From IMG/VR virus record IMGVR_UViG_648276668_000012: a stretch of DNA of 25,312 nucleotides; one strand, written 5' to 3'. This document shows, one piece after another, positions 1 to 12,715 of this stretch. Numbering within the stretch: the first letter of the stretch is position 1; each line of letters starts with the position of its first letter. Under the pieces are notes generated by a model, which saw nothing but the letters and a program-made list of their open reading frames with translations, made no database searches and had not been told where the DNA came from. A program made the translations under genes and the position numbers. Source of the stretch: a virus (lineage: Duplodnaviria; Heunggongvirae; Uroviricota; Caudoviricetes).

Positions 1-1056
1 TTATTGCGGGGTAATGCCAACCGCTGCCGCCACTTTGTCGCCATTTGGTAACGTTGCCAGTGGATTGAAACGGAGCGCCGTTTCCAAATGATCCGGTGCC
101 AGATGCGCATAACGCATAGTCATTTTTATATCGTGGTGTCCGAGAATTTTTTGTAAGGCCAAGATGTTTCCACCCGACATCATGAAGTGCGCCGCAAACG
201 TATGGCGCAGAACGTGTGTCAGTTGACCGCGAGGGAGAACGATAGACGTTTTTTCCATCACGGATAAAAATTGAAAATAGCAGTCTGTGAAGAAATTGAA
301 CCCATCGAGCGCCATGATCTCTTCATAAAGCTCTTTACTGATAGGGATGCTTCTGTTTTTCTTCCCCTTCGTTCTCACAAAGGTGATTCGGTACTTGGTG
401 ACCTGTGAGCGGGTAAGATTGATTGCTTCTCGCCAACGTGCGCCTGTACTTAGACATATTTTTACCACCAGTGCCAGAATTGGGTTCTGACGTTTGCAGT
501 CAGACAGTAATTCGATAATCTGCTCATGTGTAAGCCATGCCATTTCCTTTTCTGCGATAGTGAATTTGCGCATCTTCTCTAATGGGTTTGGAAGTGTCCA
601 TTCACCCAGGCGGGAAAGTTCTCTGAAAACGCTGCTTAGATGGCTTTGCTCCAGGTTAACAGTAACTGGGCTTGCTCCTTTCTTCCATTTTTCACTGAAG
701 TAGATTTCACCAGTAAGGCGTTTATCGCGATAGTGAGCAAACATTTTTGAGGTGAGATCAGTTGCAAGGGGATTTCCCAAGGCGTCAACCATCAACAGCA
801 GCTTGTTGTAGACATGCTGTCCGGCAGTAAGAGATTTGCCATGTAATTTGAACCATAGCTCAACCATATCTTTCAGTGTCCGACGATCCACTGATTCGCC
901 CAGCCAGGGCTTTGCTTCTATTTCCCCCATGGTGTATCGCTCGAAGGCCAGTGCTTCGCCTTTGGTGGCGAATTGTTTACGCACACGGCGTCCGCTACGT
1001 CCGGCGGGGTAACATTCGCAAAGCCATTTCCCTGTGGTTAGTTTTCGTACTGCCAT
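1..1056 (-). CDS. int: Tyrosine site-specific integrase (P2/186 family)
   Basis: 351-aa ORF; C-terminal catalytic region with conserved tyrosine-recombinase residues (HxxR ... MTMRYAHLAP); GGAGGG RBS 8 nt upstream of the ATG; sits at the prophage edge next to the repressor module. Confidence 0.9.
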   Translation of the reverse strand: MAVRKLTTGKWLCECYPAGRSGRRVRKQFATKGEALAFERYTMGEIEAKPWLGESVDRRTLKDMVELWFKLHGKSLTAGQHVYNKLLLMVDALGNPLATDLTSKMFAHYRDKRLTGEIYFSEKWKKGASPVTVNLEQSHLSSVFRELSRLGEWTLPNPLEKMRKFTIAEKEMAWLTHEQIIELLSDCKRQNPILALVVKICLSTGARWREAINLTRSQVTKYRITFVRTKGKKNRSIPISKELYEEIMALDGFNFFTDCYFQFLSVMEKTSIVLPRGQLTHVLRHTFAAHFMMSGGNILALQKILGHHDIKMTMRYAHLAPDHLETALRFNPLATLPNGDKVAAAVGITPQ

Positions 1057-1134: not shown

Positions 1135-1506
1135 TCATAAGTACCGATATGATTGCGGGGCCGTTATGTTATCACCTAATGAACTTAGATGAAGTGGTTG
1201 GTCATAGATTTTTAGATTACCAATTTCTATAGCAAAGGCCTTTTCTTTGCTATGAAAATATGAGTCAAAAAATTGTTTACTGATACCCGCGTATTGGCTT
1301 GTTTTTTCCCATACAATACTCGGCTTGCCTTCTATAACATCTGCAATGTCAAATTCAGCAACAACTTTACCGACAGGCATTGTTGAATAAATAACCACAG
1401 ATTTTACATCCGGGTTTTTGAAAATACCTTTCCTGAATTCAAACTTCTTTGTTCCATTAAGAATTTTTTCAACAAATTCAGGTTTTATTGACAATAACAC
1501 TTTCAT
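1135..1506 (-). CDS. ASCH-domain (PUA-like fold) protein
   Basis: 123-aa ORF; N-terminal 'LSIKPEFVEKILNGTKKFEFRKG' matches the ASCH-domain signature by recall; AT-rich codon usage unlike the phage backbone. Confidence 0.6.
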   Translation of the reverse strand: MKVLLSIKPEFVEKILNGTKKFEFRKGIFKNPDVKSVVIYSTMPVGKVVAEFDIADVIEGKPSIVWEKTSQYAGISKQFFDSYFHSKEKAFAIEIGNLKIYDQPLHLSSLGDNITAPQSYRYL

Positions 1507-1711
1507 CTACAGCACCAAGTTTAATTATATCGTCAAATTGCTTATCGGTTAATTTAACAACACCCCAACGGTTTTTAGGATTCAAACCAATTTCTTCGAT
1601 TAGTTTAGCACGATTTATTCTTTTAGGTAAAGCTAGATTATATGTAAAACTAATAATGTAAGGGTATCTTTTTGTTTGATAGAATTTTTTTAATTCATTT
1701 TCAGAAAACAC
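1478..1711 (-). CDS. Hypothetical small protein (77 aa), overlaps the ASCH gene by 29 nt
   Basis: ORF with GTG start and no clear Shine-Dalgarno; different frame from the downstream ASCH ORF; could be a separate coupled gene or an artefact. Confidence 0.35.
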   Translation of the reverse strand: MFSENELKKFYQTKRYPYIISFTYNLALPKRINRAKLIEEIGLNPKNRWGVVKLTDKQFDDIIKLGAVDESVIVNKT

Positions 1712-1851
1712 ACTGTATCGTGCACAATACTGTATGAATTCATTTTCACTATGAAAAGAATCAATATATCTAATATCTTCAACTACACATAATGACGTTG
1801 CGACAGAACGATAGTATGCTCTGTTCTCTTCGTCACTTGTTCTGTAAACAA

Positions 1852-2553
1852 CTAATATGTCATGTTTTTTATTTTTGTTACATCATGCATTCTGCATATG
1901 TATATTTTTCTAATGCTGTTAGCATGAGATACATCCGTTATTATATCTGGAGATTCGGTGACGAGTTTTGAATCCGGAAAAAGTTTAGTATGAAATTTAG
2001 GGTATATTGATAATAGATATTTGCTCTCATTATTTTTATTGTTTATATATGGGTAATCAGAAAGAATATCTCCTGTGAGGTGATCTCTATTCATCTCTCT
2101 TACTAAGACATTTTCTATACCATTTGCGGTTTTTTTTGTGCCATGAAGAATGAATCCATAAAGTTTGAATAGTTTTATTAAATATTCATGTTTTTCAAAT
2201 ACAGTAACATAAATATCATTAACTTTTTCTTTTAAAGCATGGTCAAATATTTTTTTAAAAACGTTGTCCTCGTAATGTTTTTTTGTGTTGAACTTAAAAG
2301 TTCCAATTTTCAAATGCTTATCGTTAACGATTGATGGTGTAACATCTGTTATTGTACCGTGCTCAATTTTTAAATACATAAAACCATCAATGGTATTATC
2401 GTCATTATAAAGTACATATGCTTTTTCTTCTGGATTCAGGCTTTTTTTGTTAAACCATTCAATAAAACCGTGTTTATAGTCATTTTTTAATGAATCAAAG
2501 AATATATCATCAAAATTTACTTGACTGAATGGAATAAGCTTTAAATTTTCCAT
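1852..2553 (-). CDS. Hypothetical protein (233 aa), cargo island; possible acyl-transferase-like fold (weak)
   Basis: Uninterrupted 233-aa ORF, AT-rich, co-oriented with flanking genes; C-terminal segment 'EKHEYLIKLFKLYGFILHG' loosely resembles the GNAT motif B region, but no clear motif A. Confidence 0.5.
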   Translation of the reverse strand: MENLKLIPFSQVNFDDIFFDSLKNDYKHGFIEWFNKKSLNPEEKAYVLYNDDNTIDGFMYLKIEHGTITDVTPSIVNDKHLKIGTFKFNTKKHYEDNVFKKIFDHALKEKVNDIYVTVFEKHEYLIKLFKLYGFILHGTKKTANGIENVLVREMNRDHLTGDILSDYPYINNKNNESKYLLSIYPKFHTKLFPDSKLVTESPDIITDVSHANSIRKIYICRMHDVTKIKNMTY

Positions 2554-2580: not shown

Positions 2581-3651
2581 TTATCTTCTATAGGTCAAAA
2601 GGTGAATTAATATATATATTGCAATAGCTAGGATTGCTCCACATATATAATATGTGCCTGTCGGTATGAATTTAAGAATAAAAGCAAAGGCGGCACCATA
2701 TATCAAGTATGCGAAAATTTTACTGAATTTTGTTTTCGTGTTTTTAAACTTCACAACAACAGAGAAGTCATTTAGTCTTGCTTTTTTATCATTAACAATC
2801 TTCCAATGGTAAATCATAGGATCGTGATCACCAAATGAAATATCCTTATCGAAATATTTTGTCCATGTTTCAGACTCTAATATTCTACATCCTTTATAAC
2901 TTGAACCAGATGCTGAACATTCATCAACAATATCTCTAATGATAAACAAATGTGTTTTTAAAGGCGTACAAGCGGCGCTCGCCAGAGTTGTAGCGATTTC
3001 TGAAGGTAGGTTTCTTTGTTCATTGATCCTAAAGTCAATAATATCAGAACGCTCAATATTGCTTTTGAGAAAGAGATCTTTGGGATAAAATGTTTTTACT
3101 AAAATACCTATATCATCAATGTTGAGTTTAACGCGAAATCTCAAGTAATGTGGAGCGTCCTCTGAAGATAGGCAATCTTTTAGCTTGAAAACAATAAAAG
3201 TACCATTATGTATTTTAGTTACCTTAACTCTACGGTCAAGTTCACCACCACTAAAAGTTAGCTTTGTATTAACAACTAAATCACCTTTATTCGCGAGTAC
3301 TAATTTTAAATGTCTGACGTCTACAGTTTTGGTATTAATAAGATACTCATTAAAAACAGCCGTTACGAGATCTCGGCTTGACTCGAGATTTTCACTAAGA
3401 TCCGAAAAAAAACAGTTTTCTTTCTCAAATGGTAAAAATATGCATATTGCGCCATGATTTGCAATAGTATCGTCATCGGGTTTTTCAAACGTAATACCAA
3501 AATCTAAATAACCAAATTTATGAGCACTTAGATTCCAAAAGTTTATATGCAACTCATTAATAAAATTCTTGTGTTCAGGGTTATAGGTCGAGCTCGAATC
3601 ACTGCGATAATCCCTGCATCCCCAGACAGCAAAACTTTTTGACATAAACAT
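2581..3651 (-). CDS. Hypothetical protein (356 aa) with C-terminal double transmembrane anchor
   Basis: Long AT-rich ORF; last ~45 residues form two hydrophobic helices (IFAYLIYGAAFAFILKF ... YYICGAILAIAIYILIHLL); no recognisable catalytic motif. Confidence 0.55.
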   Translation of the reverse strand: MFMSKSFAVWGCRDYRSDSSSTYNPEHKNFINELHINFWNLSAHKFGYLDFGITFEKPDDDTIANHGAICIFLPFEKENCFFSDLSENLESSRDLVTAVFNEYLINTKTVDVRHLKLVLANKGDLVVNTKLTFSGGELDRRVKVTKIHNGTFIVFKLKDCLSSEDAPHYLRFRVKLNIDDIGILVKTFYPKDLFLKSNIERSDIIDFRINEQRNLPSEIATTLASAACTPLKTHLFIIRDIVDECSASGSSYKGCRILESETWTKYFDKDISFGDHDPMIYHWKIVNDKKARLNDFSVVVKFKNTKTKFSKIFAYLIYGAAFAFILKFIPTGTYYICGAILAIAIYILIHLLTYRR

Positions 3652-3673
3652 TTCCTTATATCATAGTAAGTTA

Positions 3674-4240
3674 TTATACATCTGATAATATTTTTCGATA
3701 GCATCTTGCGATGGGTTTAATATCGTCAAGCATACAATCAAAAGATGTTTGTCCACTGCTAACTTGCACTCTCCCAACTGGAATTCTAACCAGATCACGA
3801 GAACTTATTTTTCCTTCTATTTCAACAATCCATTTCCCATCAATAATTTCATCAAATTTCATGTCTACTAGATAATTATCTGATAACTCAGAAAATATTG
3901 CGGGGGTAATCATATCCTCCGGGAGCAAATCTTTATCAAAAATGTAAGAGGAATCACCTTGTAGCTTGCCATCTACTATTTTGTAATGTGGCAATTTTAT
4001 ACCTTCTTTCGTTGCCTCAAGACGAGGGGAACCAACACCAGACACTAACCACTCGAGAGACACTCCCGTTTCTAGAGCGCACTGGATTACCCAATCTGCT
4101 GGAAAAATATCACGCATATAGCGCGTTGCCATGGTGCTCTTAGAAACACCTAAATGATCACAGAGAGCCTGACGGGTACCGAACCCATATGCTTCAACTA
4201 AACGTTCTATGGCTTTCTTACCGCCGCTATTGAAATCCAT
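3674..4240 (-). CDS. cI: CI-type immunity repressor (186 CI-like)
   Basis: Protein 'MDFNSGGKKAIERLVEAYGF...CALETGVSLEWLVSGVG' resembles the 186 CI N-terminal DNA-binding domain; chosen start has GGAG RBS 6 nt upstream (the track's longer ORF to 4327 lacks this); position between int and apl/cII. Confidence 0.75.
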   Translation of the reverse strand: MDFNSGGKKAIERLVEAYGFGTRQALCDHLGVSKSTMATRYMRDIFPADWVIQCALETGVSLEWLVSGVGSPRLEATKEGIKLPHYKIVDGKLQGDSSYIFDKDLLPEDMITPAIFSELSDNYLVDMKFDEIIDGKWIVEIEGKISSRDLVRIPVGRVQVSSGQTSFDCMLDDIKPIARCYRKILSDV

Positions 4241-5977: not shown

Positions 5978-6204
5978 TGGCTGATGCAATGGATCTCGTA
6001 CAGCAGCGCGTTGAAGAAGAACGCCAGCGCCATATCCGTGCTGCCCGTGCCAAAACGCCGGGCGTGTCCCGCGTGCTTTGCATTGAGTGTGAAGCGCCAA
6101 TTCCGCCAGCACGCCGCCGCGCTATTCCAGGTGTGCAGCTTTGCATTACCTGCCAGGAGATCGCAGAGCTGAAAGGCAAACATTACAACGGAGGTGCTGT
6201 ATGA
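5977..6204 (+). CDS. TraR/DksA-family C4 zinc-finger protein
   Basis: CxxC...CxxC motif (CIECEAPIPP...LCITCQ); 75 aa; typical of P2 orf82-like early proteins. Confidence 0.7.
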   Translation: MADAMDLVQQRVEEERQRHIRAARAKTPGVSRVLCIECEAPIPPARRRAIPGVQLCITCQEIAELKGKHYNGGAV

Positions 6205-7058
6205 GCACCATCCTGAAATGGGCGGGTAATAAAACCGTCATTATGCCAGAACTGAAAAAATACCTTCCTGCTGGCCCGCGACTGGTTGAACCTTTCGCGG
6301 GTTCTTGTGCTGTGATGATGGAGACGGATTACCCCAGCTATCTGGTTGCGGATATTAATCCTGATTTAATCAACCTCTATAAAAAGGTTGCCGCTGATTG
6401 TGAATCGTTTATATCTCGCGCCAGAGTTTTATTTGAGAACGCAAACAGGGAGATGGCTTATTACAACATAAGGCAGGAGTTTAATTACTCAACTGAAATT
6501 ACTGATTTCATGAAAGCGGTATATTTCCTGTATCTCAATCGTCACGGTTACCGTGGTTTATGTCGCTATAACAAGAGCGGGCATTTCAACATTCCCTATG
6601 GTAATTATAAAAATCCGTATTTCCCTGAAAAAGAAATTCGCGCATTTGCAGAAAAGGCCCAGCGAGCCACGTTTATCTGCGCCAGCTTTGATGAAACGCT
6701 GGCGATGTTGAAGGCGGGGGATGTGGTGTATTGCGATCCGCCTTATGACGGTGCGTTTTCCGGCTATCACACTGACGGCTTCACTGAAGATGACCAGTAT
6801 CACCTGGCATCCGTTCTTGAACATCGGTCATCAGAAGGACATCCGGTCATTGTTTCTAACAGTGACACATCCCTGATCCGTTCGCTGTATCGCAATTTTA
6901 CTCACCACTACATCAAGGCAAAACGCAGCATTGGCGTGGCAGCTGGTGAGAGTAAATCTGCAACAGAAATCATCGCTGTTTCCGGGCCGCGCTGCTGGGT
7001 AGGATTTGATCCTTCGCGTGGCGTGGATTGTTCCGTCGTGTACGGAGTGCGTGCATGA
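6201..7058 (+). CDS. dam: DNA adenine methyltransferase (Dam family, N6-adenine)
   Basis: N-terminal 'ILKWAGNK' AdoMet-binding motif and catalytic 'DPPY' motif ([10 protein letters not shown]); GGAGG RBS; ATGA overlap with the upstream gene. Confidence 0.85.
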
Positions 7059-9469
7059 GCCATGCTGATATGAACAACTGCAGCGGCTTTAACGAGGTCG
7101 CCGCAGCATTCTCATGGAACAGCCCGAAAAAGGCCATTAACCCTTATCTGGACCCGGCGGAAGTTGCGCCGGTTTCTGCGCTTTCAAACCTGATCACTCT
7201 GTACGCTGCCGATAACGAGCAGGAACAACTGCGCCGCGAGGCACTGAGTGATCAGGTCTGGGAGCGTTATTTCTTTAATGAATCCCATGATCCTGTCCAG
7301 CGCGAAATGAAGCAGGATAAGCTCATTAGCCGGGCAAAGCTGGCGCATGAGCAGCAGCGTTTTAATCCGGATATGGTCATTCTGGCGGACGTCAACGCCC
7401 AGCCTTCCCATATCAGCAAGCCGCTGATGCAACGTATTGAATACTTTAGCAGCCTGGGCAGGCCAAAGGCTTATTCCCGCTATTTACGTGAGACGATTAA
7501 GCCATGTCTGGAACGACTGGAGCATGTACGCGACAGCCAGCTATCTGCATCTTTTCGCTTTATGGCAAGCCATGAAGGGCTGGACGGCCTGCTGATCCTG
7601 CCTGAAATGAGTCAGGATCAGGTGAAGCGCCTGTCTACCCTTGTCGCCGCGCATATGAGCATGTGCCTTGATGCAGCTTGTGGTGATTTGTATGCCACCG
7701 ATGACGTTAAGCCAGAAGAAATCCGCAAGACATGGGAAAAGGTGGCAGCGGAAACCCTGCGTCTGGATGTCATCCCGCCTGCGTTTGAGCAACTCCGCCG
7801 GAAAAGAAACCGCCGTAAACCCGTGCCCTATGAACTCATTCCGGGTTCGCTGGCGCGTATGTTGTGCGCCGACTGGTGGTACCGGAAATTATGGAAGATG
7901 CGTTGCGAATGGCGGGAAGAGCAGTTGCGTGCTGTTTGCCTGGTCAGCAAAAAAGCATCTCCCTATGTCAGCTATGAAGCCGTGATGCATAAACGTGAGC
8001 AGCGCCGTAAGTCGCTGGAGTTTTTCCGTTCTCATGAACTGGTGAACGAAGACGGCGACACGCTGAACATGGAGGATGTGGTAAACGCCAGCAGCAGCAA
8101 CCCGGCGCATCGCCGCAACGAGATGATGGCCTGTGTTAAAGGCCTGGAGCTTATCGCGGAAATGCGTGGTGACTGCGCCGTTTTCTACACCATCACCTGT
8201 CCGTCACGTTTCCATTCCACGCTAAATAACGGCAGGCCCAACCCGACCTGGACAAATGCGACGGTAAGACAAAGCAGCGATTATCTGGTCGGTATGTTTG
8301 CTGCATTTCGTAAGGCGATGCACAAAGCCGGGTTGCGCTGGTATGGCGTGCGGGTGGCTGAGCCGCATCACGACGGCACAGTTCACTGGCACCTGTTGTG
8401 TTTCATGCGCAAAAAAGACCGCCGCGCCATTACTGCATTGTTGCGTAAGTTTGCCATCCGTGAAGACCGCGAGGAGCTGGGCAATAACACGGGGCCACGC
8501 TTTAAGTCTGAGCTGATAAACCCGCGCAAAGGTACGCCAACAAGCTACATCGCGAAATATATCAGCAAGAACATTGACGGGCGTGGTCTGGCTGGCGAGA
8601 TCAGCAAGGAAACGGGTAAATCTCTGCGTGATAACGCTGAATACGTGAATGCCTGGGCGTCTTTGCATCGTGTTCAGCAATTCCGCTTCTTTGGTATTCC
8701 GGGACGTCAGGCTTACCGTGAACTTCGCTTGCTGGCTGGTCAGGCGGCAAGGCAACAGGGTGACAAAAAAGCAGGTGCGCCGGTACTGGATAACCCGTGT
8801 CTTGATGCCATTCTGGCTGCTGCTGATGCTGGTTGTTTTGCCACCTACATCATGAAGCAGGGCGGCGTACTGGTTCCCCGTAAATATCACCTCATCAGAA
8901 CCGCTTATGAAATCAACGAAGAGCCGACCGCCTATGGCGATCACGGTATTCGTATTTATGGCATCTGGTCACCCATTGCAGAGGGCAAGATCTGCACTCA
9001 TTCAGTGAAGTGGAAAATGGTTCGTAAAGCCGTTGACGTTCAGGAGGCGGCAGCCGACCAGGGCGCTTGCGCCCCTTGGACTCGTGGCAATAACTGTCCC
9101 CTTGCTGAAAATTTGAACCAACAGGAGAAAGATAAATCAGCTGATGGGGACACCAGAACGGACATTACCCGCATGGATGACAAGGAGTTGCACGATTACC
9201 TGCACAGTATGAGCAAAAAAGAGCGCCGGGAACTGGCTGCAAGGTTACGCTTGGTGAAACCGAAACGGCGTAAAGACTACAAACAGCGAATTACAGATCA
9301 TCAGCGACAGCAGCTCGTTTATGAGCTGAAGTCCAGAGGATTTGATGGCAGCGAGAAAGAGGTCGATTTACTCCTTCGCGGCGGCAGTATTCCGTCAGGA
9401 GCAGGCCTGCGTATCTTCTATCGGAACCAGCGTCTGCAGGAGGATGATAAATGGCGGAACCTGTATTAA
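7055..9469 (+). CDS. A: Replication initiation protein A (rolling-circle nicking endonuclease, P2 gpA family)
   Basis: About 805 aa; contains the HxH-type motif 'VHWHLLCF' and a tyrosine-rich active-site region 'YIAKYISKN'; start ATG overlaps the dam stop (ATGA). Confidence 0.85.
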
Positions 9470-9562
9470 TTACGCTGGTTAACAATTCGTGCTCTTAATA
9501 ATACCAGGCATATCAGGCTGATGAGCGTAAAAAACGTTTTACATCAGTAAGATTATTATATA

Positions 9563-9578
9563 CTGTAAATATAAACAG
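9563..9578. promoter_or_regulatory. LexA (SOS) box CTGTAAATATAAACAG
   Basis: Exact CTGT-N8-ACAG with AT-rich spacer, 44 bp upstream of the ATG at 9622, overlapping an AT-rich -10-like region (TATACT). Confidence 0.6.
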
Positions 9579-9621
9579 TGGTTATGTGTACAGTATTGCT
9601 TGTGGTGTCATAGGAGGAAAA

Positions 9622-9810
9622 ATGCAGGACTATTTTTTGGAGTCTTTGAAGCTCCAGCGCATTGATTTTTTTCTTAAGCTTGTAGCGGCTAGTGAGTGTA
9701 GTGATGAAGAGAAGGGGCTGGCTCTGCAGTGGGTTTCTGAGTTGACTGATGAACTCATGGCAAAAATCAGAACTCACGAATACAACCGCTCAATGGATGT
9801 CATCAGTTGA
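9622..9810 (+). CDS. Hypothetical protein (62 aa), first gene of an SOS-controlled pair
   Basis: AGGAGG RBS immediately upstream of the ATG; preceded by the LexA box. Confidence 0.5.
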   Translation: MQDYFLESLKLQRIDFFLKLVAASECSDEEKGLALQWVSELTDELMAKIRTHEYNRSMDVIS

Positions 9811-9820
9811 GGTGACTTTT

Positions 9821-10054
9821 ATGCGCATTGAAATAATGATCGATAAAGAGCAGAAGATTAGCCAGTCTACCCTGGACGCCCTTGAATCAGAGCTTTACCG
9901 CAATCTGCGCCCCCTATATCCAAAAACGGTAATTCGCATCCGCAAAGGTAGCTCTAACGGTGTGGAACTGACCGGACTGCAACTGGACGAAGAAAGAAAA
10001 CAAGTGATGAAAATTATGCAGAAGGTGTGGGAAGACGACAGCTGGCTGCATTAA
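9821..10054 (+). CDS. tum: DinI-family protein (Tum-like antirepressor module)
   Basis: 'MRIEIMIDKEQKISQSTLDALESEL...VWEDDSWL' aligns by eye with E. coli DinI (MRIEVTIAK...ETWESADDWF); GAGGTG RBS; LexA box upstream of the pair. Confidence 0.75.
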   Translation: MRIEIMIDKEQKISQSTLDALESELYRNLRPLYPKTVIRIRKGSSNGVELTGLQLDEERKQVMKIMQKVWEDDSWLH

Positions 10055-10213
10055 GAAAAGTTGCTGGCGTCTGAACTTGGTTCTGGCGTCAGCAAGGTTG
10101 AACAACGAGTACAGTGAGGCGTTAGGTGTGGCGTTTATTTGATGAGTGAGCGCCCGTTCTGCGACAGGTTCGGAGATTAAGGTTGAAACTACGGGCAAAA
10201 TACCATCTTTTTC

Positions 10214-10639
10214 CTACTTAATTGAGTCCAGTAACAAGTTACAGTTACTCTCATTGTAGAGAGAACGAGCAATTAGTGTTACCTGCTTTCCATTCATTCC
10301 CGGCTTATCCCATAACACAGCTTCTTGCGACGCCACAAATTCAGCATAATCAATTATGCGTTGTTCGTGATCTGGTTCCTCATAGCCAAAGTATGAGAGC
10401 GCATCGTTGTAAGCGTGGTAAGCTGCTTTCTGTAATATCTTGATATCGGCTGTAGGTACTTGCTCCGTGTAGCTAGGATCTAATTGTGTGCTACTGCCAT
10501 AGAATGCACATGAAAGGTAAGATATTGATTTCTGTTGAGCTTTAGTTCCTTTCTCATAGTTTTTAGCTGTTACCGCCTGAACTGGGACGCTAACAAAGCT
10601 TGCAACCAGAATTAAAATTAATACGTAAAAGCTTTTCAT
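10214..10639 (-). CDS. Hypothetical secreted/periplasmic protein (141 aa) with N-terminal signal peptide
   Basis: N-terminus 'MKSFYVLILILVASFVSVPVQAVTA' is a typical Sec signal peptide; AT-rich; opposite orientation to flanking genes; at the P2 tin/old-equivalent position. Confidence 0.55.
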   Translation of the reverse strand: MKSFYVLILILVASFVSVPVQAVTAKNYEKGTKAQQKSISYLSCAFYGSSTQLDPSYTEQVPTADIKILQKAAYHAYNDALSYFGYEEPDHEQRIIDYAEFVASQEAVLWDKPGMNGKQVTLIARSLYNESNCNLLLDSIK

Positions 10640-10912
10640 TTTGACCTCAGCCGAAACGTTAGAGAGACTATCGAAATTTGTAAAACCCGTGGCGATTCAG
10701 TTTGAGATCCTCCCCCTTACATGATTTTTAATCAAATATATGCTTTTGTAAGCATACCTGTTAACCGAATTATTTATTTTTAGAGATCTTCCGACATACT
10801 GATTATGCCCGCTGAGGAGTTCACCTTGCGTAAAGTCCGATTCGCTTTACTCGTCTGTGCATGCCTATGCTGCATGAGATTGCATGATCGTTTGAGGATC
10901 GTTTTTGCTAAG

Positions 10913-10936
10913 GCCCGCCAGAACTGGCGGGCTTTT
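10913..10936 (+). terminator. Rho-independent terminator (GC hairpin plus T-tract)
   Basis: GCCCGCCAG-AA-CTGGCGGGC perfect 9-bp stem followed by TTTT. Confidence 0.5.
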
Positions 10937-10981
10937 GCGTAGATCATGCACCTGCATGAAAACCACTATATAAAGCGGGCA

Positions 10982-11000
10982 GGCGTGGCGGGGATACGAG
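10982..11000. other. Candidate cos (cohesive-end) site
   Basis: GGCGTGGCGGGGATACGAG matches the first 13 nt of the remembered 186/P2 cos 19-mers (GGCGTGGCGGGGAAAGCAT / GGCGAGGCGGGGAAAGCAC); GGGGATACG repeats 22 bp downstream; lies on the portal-gene side as in P2. Confidence 0.5.
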
Positions 11001-11087
11001 CGCGCGCTGATGGGGATACGGTGTTTTTAGTAAGGTTATGAGGTAGAATTTGACGCGGTTTTTTTAAGCATATTGAGGTGTAAATAG

Positions 11088-11633
11088 ATGGATGCTATTA
11101 CTGGATTATTGGATTTTTTTAGAAAGATTCCAACGGCACTTCTTGTAGCTATTACATGTGGTTTAAGTTTGATCCTTTTTTTGCCAGAATCTTTAGCTTC
11201 TAAAGTTGCGGTTGATGGTTTCCGTAAAGAATATAGAAATTTCATAGGACCAGCATTTTTACTGGCTGTCTCTTTTTTAGTTGCAAGAGTATATCAGTTT
11301 TTTCATGACCTATATGGCGATAGACAAAGGCACAAAGTACGTATCTCTTATTTGGAGAAGCTAACTCCTGAGGAGAAGGGATACCTCTGGTCTTATATAA
11401 TTGATGGCGAAAACTCACTAATGTGTGGTCCTGAAGATGGTGTTATGGGGGGGTTGGTTGCTAAGCGCATAACCTATAGAGCTGCAAACGTGGGCAGTAT
11501 GATTGACGGATTCGCTTTCAATTTGCAGCCGTGGGCTCGCGAGCATTTACAGAACAACACTCATTTATTAGAAGGAGCGGTCGGTAGGGCAATGACACCG
11601 GGTGAGAAACTAGGATTCAGGCGTAGATTTTAA
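11088..11633 (+). CDS. Hypothetical inner-membrane protein (181 aa, two N-terminal TM helices); possibly SieB-like superinfection exclusion
   Basis: Two hydrophobic helices (IPTALLVAITCGLSLILFL; IGPAFLLAVSFLVARVYQFF) followed by a soluble domain; lies between cos and portal gene Q, where P2 has no gene; lower GC than backbone. Confidence 0.5.
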   Translation: MDAITGLLDFFRKIPTALLVAITCGLSLILFLPESLASKVAVDGFRKEYRNFIGPAFLLAVSFLVARVYQFFHDLYGDRQRHKVRISYLEKLTPEEKGYLWSYIIDGENSLMCGPEDGVMGGLVAKRITYRAANVGSMIDGFAFNLQPWAREHLQNNTHLLEGAVGRAMTPGEKLGFRRRF

Positions 11634-11677
11634 CCAGTCGCACACAGGCGATGCTTGACTGGTTAGACAGGGATAAT

Positions 11678-12715
11678 CTATTCAGCGTTCAACTGGTAGG
11701 GGTCAAAAGATATTATTGGCTCATTTAACCATTCGTTAAGTTCTTCAAGTCGCTTTTGTAAAGGAATTAACTCATTTCGCACAAAAACGCGGCTGGCCTT
11801 TTCCACATCCCCAAAACCTCCAACATTATTTGGCATAATCCCCATCATTTGCGGCGGCACGCGGTGCGCCGCCATCATGTCATCCCGGCTCACGTTCTTG
11901 ATGTTTAGAAACTCATCCTTTGCTGCGACCTCTGACAACGGGATGATCTGAAGCCCATCCTTTTTGCCGTTAGGCGAGTACATAAACAGGTTGCGGAAGT
12001 TGCCCGGACCTTTGGCGCTTTTCATCGCGTTGCGGAGGTTGTTTACGTCCTCCTGGTTCTGCGCAGCATCGGTCATGTACATGATGAAGCCTGCATGACT
12101 GCCGTTAATGTAATACTTGCGGCGGAACAGCGTGGCGGACTCGTTGAGCAGGGCTGACGGAATGGCAGAAAGATAACCGGGCAGGCCGTAGATCTCCTGG
12201 TTAATGTCCGGTTCCATCAGATGAAAAATGCTTCCTTTCGTGAACTGATACGGCTGGGTTGTCATACCGTATTGCACAAACCAGTAGGTATCCAGGTCTA
12301 ACCCGCGTCGGGTGTATTTTGCTAGTGCAGGCTCAAGGGCGATAACTTCACCGAAGCGGTTCGTGCGTTTCTCCAGGTAGGCGTTACCAAATACCAGATA
12401 GTCCTGCACAAAACGCGAAAAAGCTTGCTGGCTGAGCAGAGGATGAGGGATATAGGTACTGGTCAGAATGTTGCACTTTACTGCAATCGGGGAACTGTGA
12501 TGCACGGCAGCGCGGAAGGTGCGCGCCAGTCCGTCAAAGCTGACGGGCGGCTCATACCAACGGTCCATCTGTACGCATTCCACATAGTCCAGTAATTCTC
12601 GGCGGTCCAGAACAGGAACGGGATCGCCGAAGCTGAATGCTTCGGCTGAAGTCTGGCTTTTATTCTGGTTCTGGTTCGTCGACGCAGTGCGGTTTTTCTT
12701 ACTCTTTCCCATCAA
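11678..12715 (-). CDS. Q: Portal protein (P2 gpQ family)
   Basis: 345 aa, size and position match P2 Q; 4-nt overlap with upstream terminase ATPase gene; leftward P-Q operon divergent from O-N-M-L. Confidence 0.85.
   Translation of the reverse strand: MMGKSKKNRTASTNQNQNKSQTSAEAFSFGDPVPVLDRRELLDYVECVQMDRWYEPPVSFDGLARTFRAAVHHSSPIAVKCNILTSTYIPHPLLSQQAFSRFVQDYLVFGNAYLEKRTNRFGEVIALEPALAKYTRRGLDLDTYWFVQYGMTTQPYQFTKGSIFHLMEPDINQEIYGLPGYLSAIPSALLNESATLFRRKYYINGSHAGFIMYMTDAAQNQEDVNNLRNAMKSAKGPGNFRNLFMYSPNGKKDGLQIIPLSEVAAKDEFLNIKNVSRDDMMAAHRVPPQMMGIMPNNVGGFGDVEKASRVFVRNELIPLQKRLEELNEWLNEPIISFDPYQLNAE

Follow-up and report, generated by a model that had tools for sequence, protein, structure and literature searches.

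ORF141, an optional cargo gene for a predicted periplasmic helical protein beside cos in a P2-like prophage of Escherichia coli

The gene between the replication region and cos

The window analysed here is a stretch of 25,312 nucleotides (IMG/VR record IMGVR_UViG_648276668_000012) from a P2-like prophage of Escherichia coli of the 186/Fels-2 type. Its subject is one open reading frame (ORF), ORF141, which occupies positions 10214-10639 on the minus strand and encodes a 141-amino-acid precursor from an ATG start codon, in agreement with the gene length, strand and position given by a first-pass annotation made from the sequence alone. The identical coding sequence is annotated in RefSeq as WP_000834899.1, a 'hypothetical protein', and the full length of the product matches phrog_7437 (function unassigned; E 4e-99). 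A ribosome-binding site, GAGG, can be read from the sequence at 10645-10648 on the minus strand, 5 nt upstream of the ATG. The gene had been described as AT-rich, and its GC content of 40.4% (38.7% at third codon positions, GC3) indeed lies well below that of the replication gene gpA (53.3%; GC3 58.5%).

The left flank comprises gpA (7028-9469, plus strand; PF05840, E 4e-127), a small phrog_698 ORF and a DinI-like (Tum-type) gene at 9821-10054 on the plus strand (PF06183, E 1.3e-22, and the RefSeq annotation of an identical stretch), with which the backbone genes of the early operon end. ORF141 runs opposite to both gpA and the DinI-like gene, as had been noted. On the right, the cohesive-end (cos) sequence GGCGTGGCGGGGATACGAG was placed at 10981-10999 (plus strand) by alignment to P2 cosR (GGCGAGGCGGGGAAAGCAC), Fels-2 and phage 500465-1, and the conserved backbone stops at ∼11008. 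Beyond this point lie a gene for a 181-residue SieB-family protein (11088-11633, plus strand; GC 40.8%; PF14163, E 2e-22), the portal gene Q (11678-12715, minus strand), whose counterpart in a near-identical RefSeq prophage is annotated as portal protein, and then terminase P and the late genes. The earlier description of ORF141 as the single gene of its slot is correct for the sub-slot between the DinI-like gene and cos, but does not extend to the whole gpA-gpQ interval, which holds the SieB-family gene across cos. The SieB-family gene itself is unrecognised by PADLOC and PHROGs. A SieB identity was also considered for ORF141 and rejected, since ORF141 has no Pfam hit whereas its neighbour at 11088-11633 does match PF14163.

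An optional cassette in the P2 hotspot

When the window was compared with phage 500465-1 by blastn, the backbone aligned at ∼96% identity up to position 10125 and again from 10857, with only 7 bp between these points in 500465-1, where the slot is empty. The alignment and a dip in composition delimit a 731-bp accessory cassette (10126-10856, minus strand; ∼40% GC) that consists of ORF141 and its upstream region. Among 5426 complete E. coli genomes, the backbone segment occurs in 1264 and ORF141 in 101; all 101 copies are chromosomal with at least 99% DNA identity, and the gene is present or absent among backbones that are otherwise 95-98% identical. Elsewhere in these genomes the sub-slot is occupied by HNH, DUF2971, DUF4145, ComF-like, GNAT or DUF8087 genes, or by nothing, and Fels-2 carries an unrelated 243-amino-acid gene (STM2726) in the same gap. 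ORF141 is a discrete, optional low-GC cassette rather than a conserved backbone gene, the slot being empty or otherwise filled in near-identical backbones. The exact protein is found on at least 1000 contigs and is named hypothetical throughout; one automatic label of 'lipoprotein-sorting protein' exists, to which the only related signal is a noise-level match to LolA. No copy of ORF141 was detected in the INPHARED phage records by megablast or tblastn.

The Fels-2 gene STM2726 (3215-3946 of that phage) also starts with a signal peptide, although in this case with a lipobox (LAVILTGC), and the sub-slot may tend to hold envelope proteins. Homology between them was rejected, as direct profile comparison aligns at most the signal peptide.

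The cos-adjacent interval between gpA and gpQ is the main defence hotspot of P2-like elements (Rousset et al. 2022, PMC9122126; PMC13586616), and ORF141, which sits between gpA and portal gpQ beside cos, matches the hotspot definition of Rousset et al. (2022). The first-pass assignment to a tin/old-equivalent hotspot is thus supported both by the published interval and by the location of the gene, with gpA/DinI on one side and, on the other, a cos site alignable with P2 cosR. The protein is already catalogued in that survey, where WP_000834899 is listed as 'hypothetical' at least 32 times beside differing neighbours in the accessible part of Table S5A; its sequence was not found in the accessible part of Table S5B. 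Three of the eight additional P2-hotspot systems that were cloned gave defence, and non-defence cargo of the hotspot includes partition systems and, in ∼2% of elements, a secreted cytolethal distending toxin (PMC9122126).

The closest positional counterparts of ORF141 are the old and tin genes of P2, which are likewise optional AT-rich cargo, occupy the same slot from the end of the early/replication operon to cosR, and have the same leftward orientation from a cos-proximal promoter, a candidate one in the case of ORF141. Old and Tin act in the cytoplasm, whereas ORF141 is predicted to be exported and has no sequence relationship to either; for Tin, hhalign returned a probability of 0.4%, and ORF141 contains no Pfam or PADLOC domain. 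In the P2 record, tin and old lie on the minus strand between orf91 and cosR with mapped transcript starts ∼150 bp from cos, Old is an AAA-family ATPase/exonuclease, Tin blocks the growth of T-even phages, and no exported-protein annotation is given for either.

The cassette contains 217 bp of AT-rich DNA upstream of ORF141. Within it, a sigma-70-like candidate promoter (TTAACA, 18 nt, TATATT; 10 of 12 consensus matches) lies at 10735-10764 (minus strand). Its spacer and -10 element are covered by an inverted repeat, TATGCTT-ACAA-AAGCATA, which could be an operator for some regulator. No canonical terminator was found downstream of ORF141, only a weak hairpin followed by CUUUUCUU. This hairpin (10061-10095, just past the stop codon of the DinI-like gene; both strands folded) belongs to the backbone and is also present in the empty-slot phage 500465-1. 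Its folding energy is -25.7 kcal/mol (z -1.8) on the plus strand and -14 kcal/mol (z -0.8) on the minus strand, on which it precedes CUUUUCUU and could perhaps terminate leftward cargo transcripts. A strong intrinsic terminator on the plus strand (10910-10937; GGCCCGCCAG...CTGGCGGGC then TTTTG; -27.6 kcal/mol, z -4.3) is part of the conserved backbone left of cos, so that rightward read-through from the early operon would traverse ORF141 in antisense before ending. Rfam gave no RNA family in 9400-11800.

In 29 P2-like contigs from IMG/VR, the order gpA-ORF141-cos is collinear, mostly at ∼97% identity, while the stretch of cargo from cos to Q varies in both length and sequence. The gene beside ORF141 may be SieB, a HIRAN pair, which replaces SieB in the post-cos slot of E. 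coli LR-71-1, DUF262/DUF1524 or others, and ORF141 occurs together with the SieB gene seen here in only one of the 5426 complete genomes. That ORF141 stays while the post-cos cargo changes argues that it acts alone, and a conserved partner gene was rejected because the neighbours differ in every context examined. Cargo recorded in the cos-to-Q slot of relatives also includes a TIR gene.

A predicted exported helical protein and its family

An exhaustive hidden Markov model (HMM) search of 1.84 billion representative sequences gave 17 hits, ∼14 of which are true family members of 125-145 amino acids. Those with a named source all come from Enterobacterales (Escherichia, Klebsiella, Hafnia, Enterobacter, Siccibacter, Scandinavium and Salmonella), and a tblastn search of plasmids (E up to 1) added 12 records, all from Escherichia, Enterobacter or Citrobacter. 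A scan of species-representative genomes with profile A3 yielded 56 pattern matches, none of which was confirmed. Four homologs, taken from other P2-like lineages, from Hafnia and from a lambdoid-type prophage, gave ratios of non-synonymous to synonymous substitution (dN/dS) of 0.14-0.27 in comparison with ORF141. The gene is real and evolves under purifying selection. A chance or decaying reading frame without function might be suggested by the lack of any annotated function and by a truncated, 125-amino-acid version in Enterobacter. However, in addition to the dN/dS values, the ribosome-binding site and the confident structural model described below, the full length is kept across genera down to 24-40% identity with C44 and W110 invariant, and this alternative is effectively refuted by the conservation data.

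Codons 1-22 (10574-10639, minus strand) encode a predicted Sec/signal peptidase I signal peptide, MKSFYVLILILVASFVSVPVQA, with cleavage between A22 and V23. The prediction was made by heuristic analysis of the n-, h- and c-regions together with hydropathy, not by SignalP. A basic n-region (MK) is followed by an uncharged core of 18 residues (mean Kyte-Doolittle value of 2.42), which is the sole hydrophobic segment of the protein, and by VQA at positions -3 to -1. There is no lipobox cysteine, the only two cysteines of ORF141 being C44 and C133. All 16 aligned family members have this layout in spite of the sequence divergence of the stretch, and in the comparison with the four homologs non-synonymous change is about twofold faster in the first 22 codons than in the mature part, as expected for a signal peptide.

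An AlphaFold model computed from the 16-sequence alignment is a helical bundle with a mean predicted local distance difference test (pLDDT) score of 88.7. The score exceeds 90 over most of the mature part and is low only for residues 1-24 (56-62), which, together with the n/h/c architecture and its presence in 16 of 16 members, is in accord with the clear Sec signal peptide described in the first pass. Helices are predicted at residues 25-50, 63-83, 91-110, 120-130 and 133-140, and the mature protein would be an all-helical polypeptide of 119 residues with a mass of 13.4 kDa and an isoelectric point of 5.1. C44 is invariant in the 16 members and C133 is absent only from the truncated one, and two conserved cysteines fit an oxidising compartment. 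These features argue strongly that ORF141 is exported by Sec as a soluble periplasmic protein and that C44 and C133 form a disulfide. The truncated member is the homolog P0005 of Enterobacter roggenkampii (6001-6378; 125 amino acids), whose signal peptide contains a lipobox-like motif (LSAC) and whose C-terminus is divergent, shortened and without the second of the conserved cysteines. This homolog may represent a lipoprotein form of the family or a copy in decay.

Searches for characterised relatives gave no match. ORF141 matched nothing in Pfam, NCBIfam or PADLOC (NCBIfam returned only noise, PepQ at E 0.08 and LolA at E 0.23), and none of the 16 family members matched Pfam. A sequence search of the PDB with profiles A1 and A2 was negative, and BFVD gave nothing at E below 0.5. 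No function or experiment is attached to phrog_7437 or WP_000834899.1 in the sources searched, and no paper mentioning WP_000834899, phrog_7437 or A0A0K5BM55 was found in the literature. The kind of feature, an exported protein carried as hotspot cargo, is known, and the protein family and its fold are uncharacterised.

The family occurs in varied genomic settings. Homologs are found between the S and V tail genes of a Hafnia P2-like prophage; at the end of a lambdoid-type prophage, after gpJ and the tail-spike/tail-fibre genes; in a Citrobacter prophage, at its end and close to genes for a tail spike, UmuDC and DinI; in a small Klebsiella prophage, two genes downstream of the integrase; in a small integrase island of Enterobacter; on IncFIB plasmids of ∼105-115 kb that carry phage-type genes; and on a Salmonella plasmid, between insertion sequence elements and a mer operon. 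In the ∼10 contexts examined, no neighbour is shared and none is toxin- or effector-like. Such varied contexts without a shared neighbour are the signature of a portable single-gene moron, and the family is linked to phage cargo slots and never, in these contexts, to chromosomal core genes. The IncFIB plasmids with distant homologs (27-32% identity) are 105-113 kb in size, non-mobilisable, and carry a phage-type N-6-adenine methyltransferase; on them the homolog adjoins a DUF4942 gene, and a gene for an LprI-family lysozyme inhibitor lies ∼3 kb away.

The distribution also bears on a possible role in the phage's own lytic cycle, in which ORF141 would regulate the timing of lysis (antiholin-like, as T4 RI) or inhibit the phage's own endolysin. 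Small periplasmic helical lysis regulators are known from T4 and provide a precedent. We nevertheless consider such a role highly improbable: ORF141 is absent from most near-identical phages and is therefore dispensable for phage growth, its location is distant from the lysis cassette and its direction converges on the early operon, and the family is carried by plasmids and by elements with unrelated lysis systems.

Possible roles at the cell envelope

ORF141 is an autonomous accessory gene, of the moron or lysogenic-conversion type, in the old/tin position. We propose that its AT-rich upstream region would drive leftward transcription without dependence on the lytic early operon, presumably in the lysogen. 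The precursor would be exported by Sec and cleaved after A22 to give a soluble periplasmic helical protein of 119 residues, probably locked by the C44-C133 disulfide. As a stand-alone periplasmic binder, this protein might protect the lysogen at the envelope from superinfecting phages by blocking a step after adsorption, either penetration of the cell wall or passage of the DNA across the periplasm or inner membrane, and its target could be either a conserved component of the host that is used for entry or a tail-tip protein of the phage. The mechanism would be analogous in logic to that of T4 Spackle or P1 Sim without being related to either. The two roles offered in the first pass, superinfection exclusion at the envelope and host interaction, are both plausible guesses. 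The assignment to superinfection exclusion is tentative, with roughly one chance in three of being correct in our estimation, and is drawn by analogy from the record of the hotspot (old-tin, and three defensive systems among the eight others cloned), from the old/tin-like placement, and from the occurrence of the family in moron positions, where receptor-blocking genes typically lie as well.

T4 Spackle (Sp) brings about superinfection exclusion, and the enzyme that it inhibits is the gp5 tail lysozyme. The protein is small and all-helical, has a signal peptide, contains a disulfide and needs no partner for its action at the envelope. It is annotated as periplasmic in the T4 record. Homology with ORF141 was rejected (hhalign probability of 0.7%, with four aligned columns that all fall in the signal peptide), and the fold of the Spackle structures (6x6o, 7cn6) is not shared by ORF141. 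Cor (phi80/N15), Llp (T5), Sim (P1) and Ltp (TP-J34) resemble ORF141 in being single exported proteins encoded in moron positions. Indeed, cor-type genes are located downstream of tail-fibre genes, and one ORF141 homolog has this position in a lambdoid-type prophage. However, Cor, Llp and Ltp are lipoproteins, whereas ORF141 has no lipobox, although the E. roggenkampii homolog has LSAC. No homology of ORF141 to anything annotated was detected with Pfam, PHROGs or NCBIfam.

Several observations weigh against a role in exclusion. The 101 genomic copies with at least 99% identity and the low dN/dS values show none of the diversification expected of a binder of fast-evolving phage proteins. The searches made gave no sequence or fold link to a characterised exclusion, immunity or virulence protein, and the current defence models of PADLOC miss ORF141. 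The hotspot carries cargo other than defence systems, the secreted toxin included. The distant member on the Salmonella plasmid has no phage genes among its called neighbours, and the number of promoter-like sites around ORF141, counted by consensus match, is that expected by chance. The near-invariance of the gene also suggests that any target is a conserved host component rather than a fast-evolving phage protein. In its most specific form, the proposal would be that ORF141 founds a new family of periplasmic proteins without a matching fold in the PDB or BFVD, each of which blocks phage entry after adsorption by itself through binding to a conserved host envelope component, and that the family forms portable cargo of P2-like and lambdoid prophages and of phage-gene plasmids in Enterobacterales. 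We regard this version as doubtful, and as slightly less probable than exclusion in general.

A different target is envisaged if ORF141 is an orphan periplasmic inhibitor or immunity protein against a cell-wall-targeting enzyme, such as a type VI secretion system (T6SS) amidase or muramidase, a bacteriocin of the colicin M or pesticin type, or the lysozyme of the host. The benefit to the lysogen would then lie in competition with other bacteria or within the host rather than in resistance to phages. The T6SS periplasmic immunity proteins Tai4 and Rap2a were compared with ORF141, but their scores are unspecific, there is no sequence similarity, and ORF141 has no adjacent effector; pairing with an adjacent effector of the Tai4/Rap kind was rejected, none of the ∼10 contexts containing an effector-like neighbour. 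Neither ORF141 nor the 16 family members matched the lysozyme inhibitor families Ivy, MliC/PliC or LprI/DUF1311 in Pfam or NCBIfam, and with an LprI-family protein hhalign aligns the signal peptide only. A link to pesticin or colicin immunity genes on plasmids was also considered and rejected, the 12 plasmid records from tblastn (E up to 1) being those from Escherichia, Enterobacter or Citrobacter given above. An inhibitor or immunity function appears unlikely to us.

ORF141 could also be a lysogenic-conversion factor for fitness or host interaction, for example in stress protection, as a chaperone, in ligand binding or in colonisation, that is unrelated to phages or toxins. Prophage morons that encode exported proteins commonly have roles of this kind, the cytolethal distending toxin in ∼2% of elements provides an example from the same hotspot, and the high conservation of ORF141, the range of listed carriers (from humans, cattle, poultry, dogs, pigs and wastewater) and the presence of a distant member on a resistance-type plasmid would all be compatible with it. 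On the other hand, the searches made revealed no similarity to a known virulence, chaperone or binding-protein family, the 30 carriers listed show no pathotype or host-source pattern that is evident by inspection without statistics, and the family goes with phage cargo slots, never with chromosomal core genes, in the contexts examined. We give this explanation roughly one chance in five, the same standing as the inhibitor or immunity function.

As it stands, ORF141 is an ordinary uncharacterised prophage cargo gene and nothing yet marks it as unusual. Defences that act at the envelope before phage DNA entry are much less catalogued than cytoplasmic ones, and a gene of 426 bp that has no partner and is present in ∼2% of complete E. 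coli genomes is a cheap candidate for exclusion at this level. If ORF141 does block entry, it would represent a new, compact single-gene exclusion module, and the DinI-to-cos sub-slot of 186/Fels-2-type phages would be one that tends to carry envelope proteins. If it instead inhibits a toxin or lysozyme, or promotes fitness, it would be another case of non-antiviral cargo in the P2 'defence' hotspot.

A further accessory locus lies at the left end of the window, where a PADLOC candidate system, PDC-M11 (1135-2553, minus strand), adjoins the integrase gene (1-1056, minus strand). Its ASCH-like B component (1135-1506) was matched with E 4e-49 and its A component (1852-2553) with E 6e-79, the latter covering only positions 11-231 of a 357-position profile, and a separate 77-amino-acid ORF at 1478-1711 points to a split or truncated A gene.
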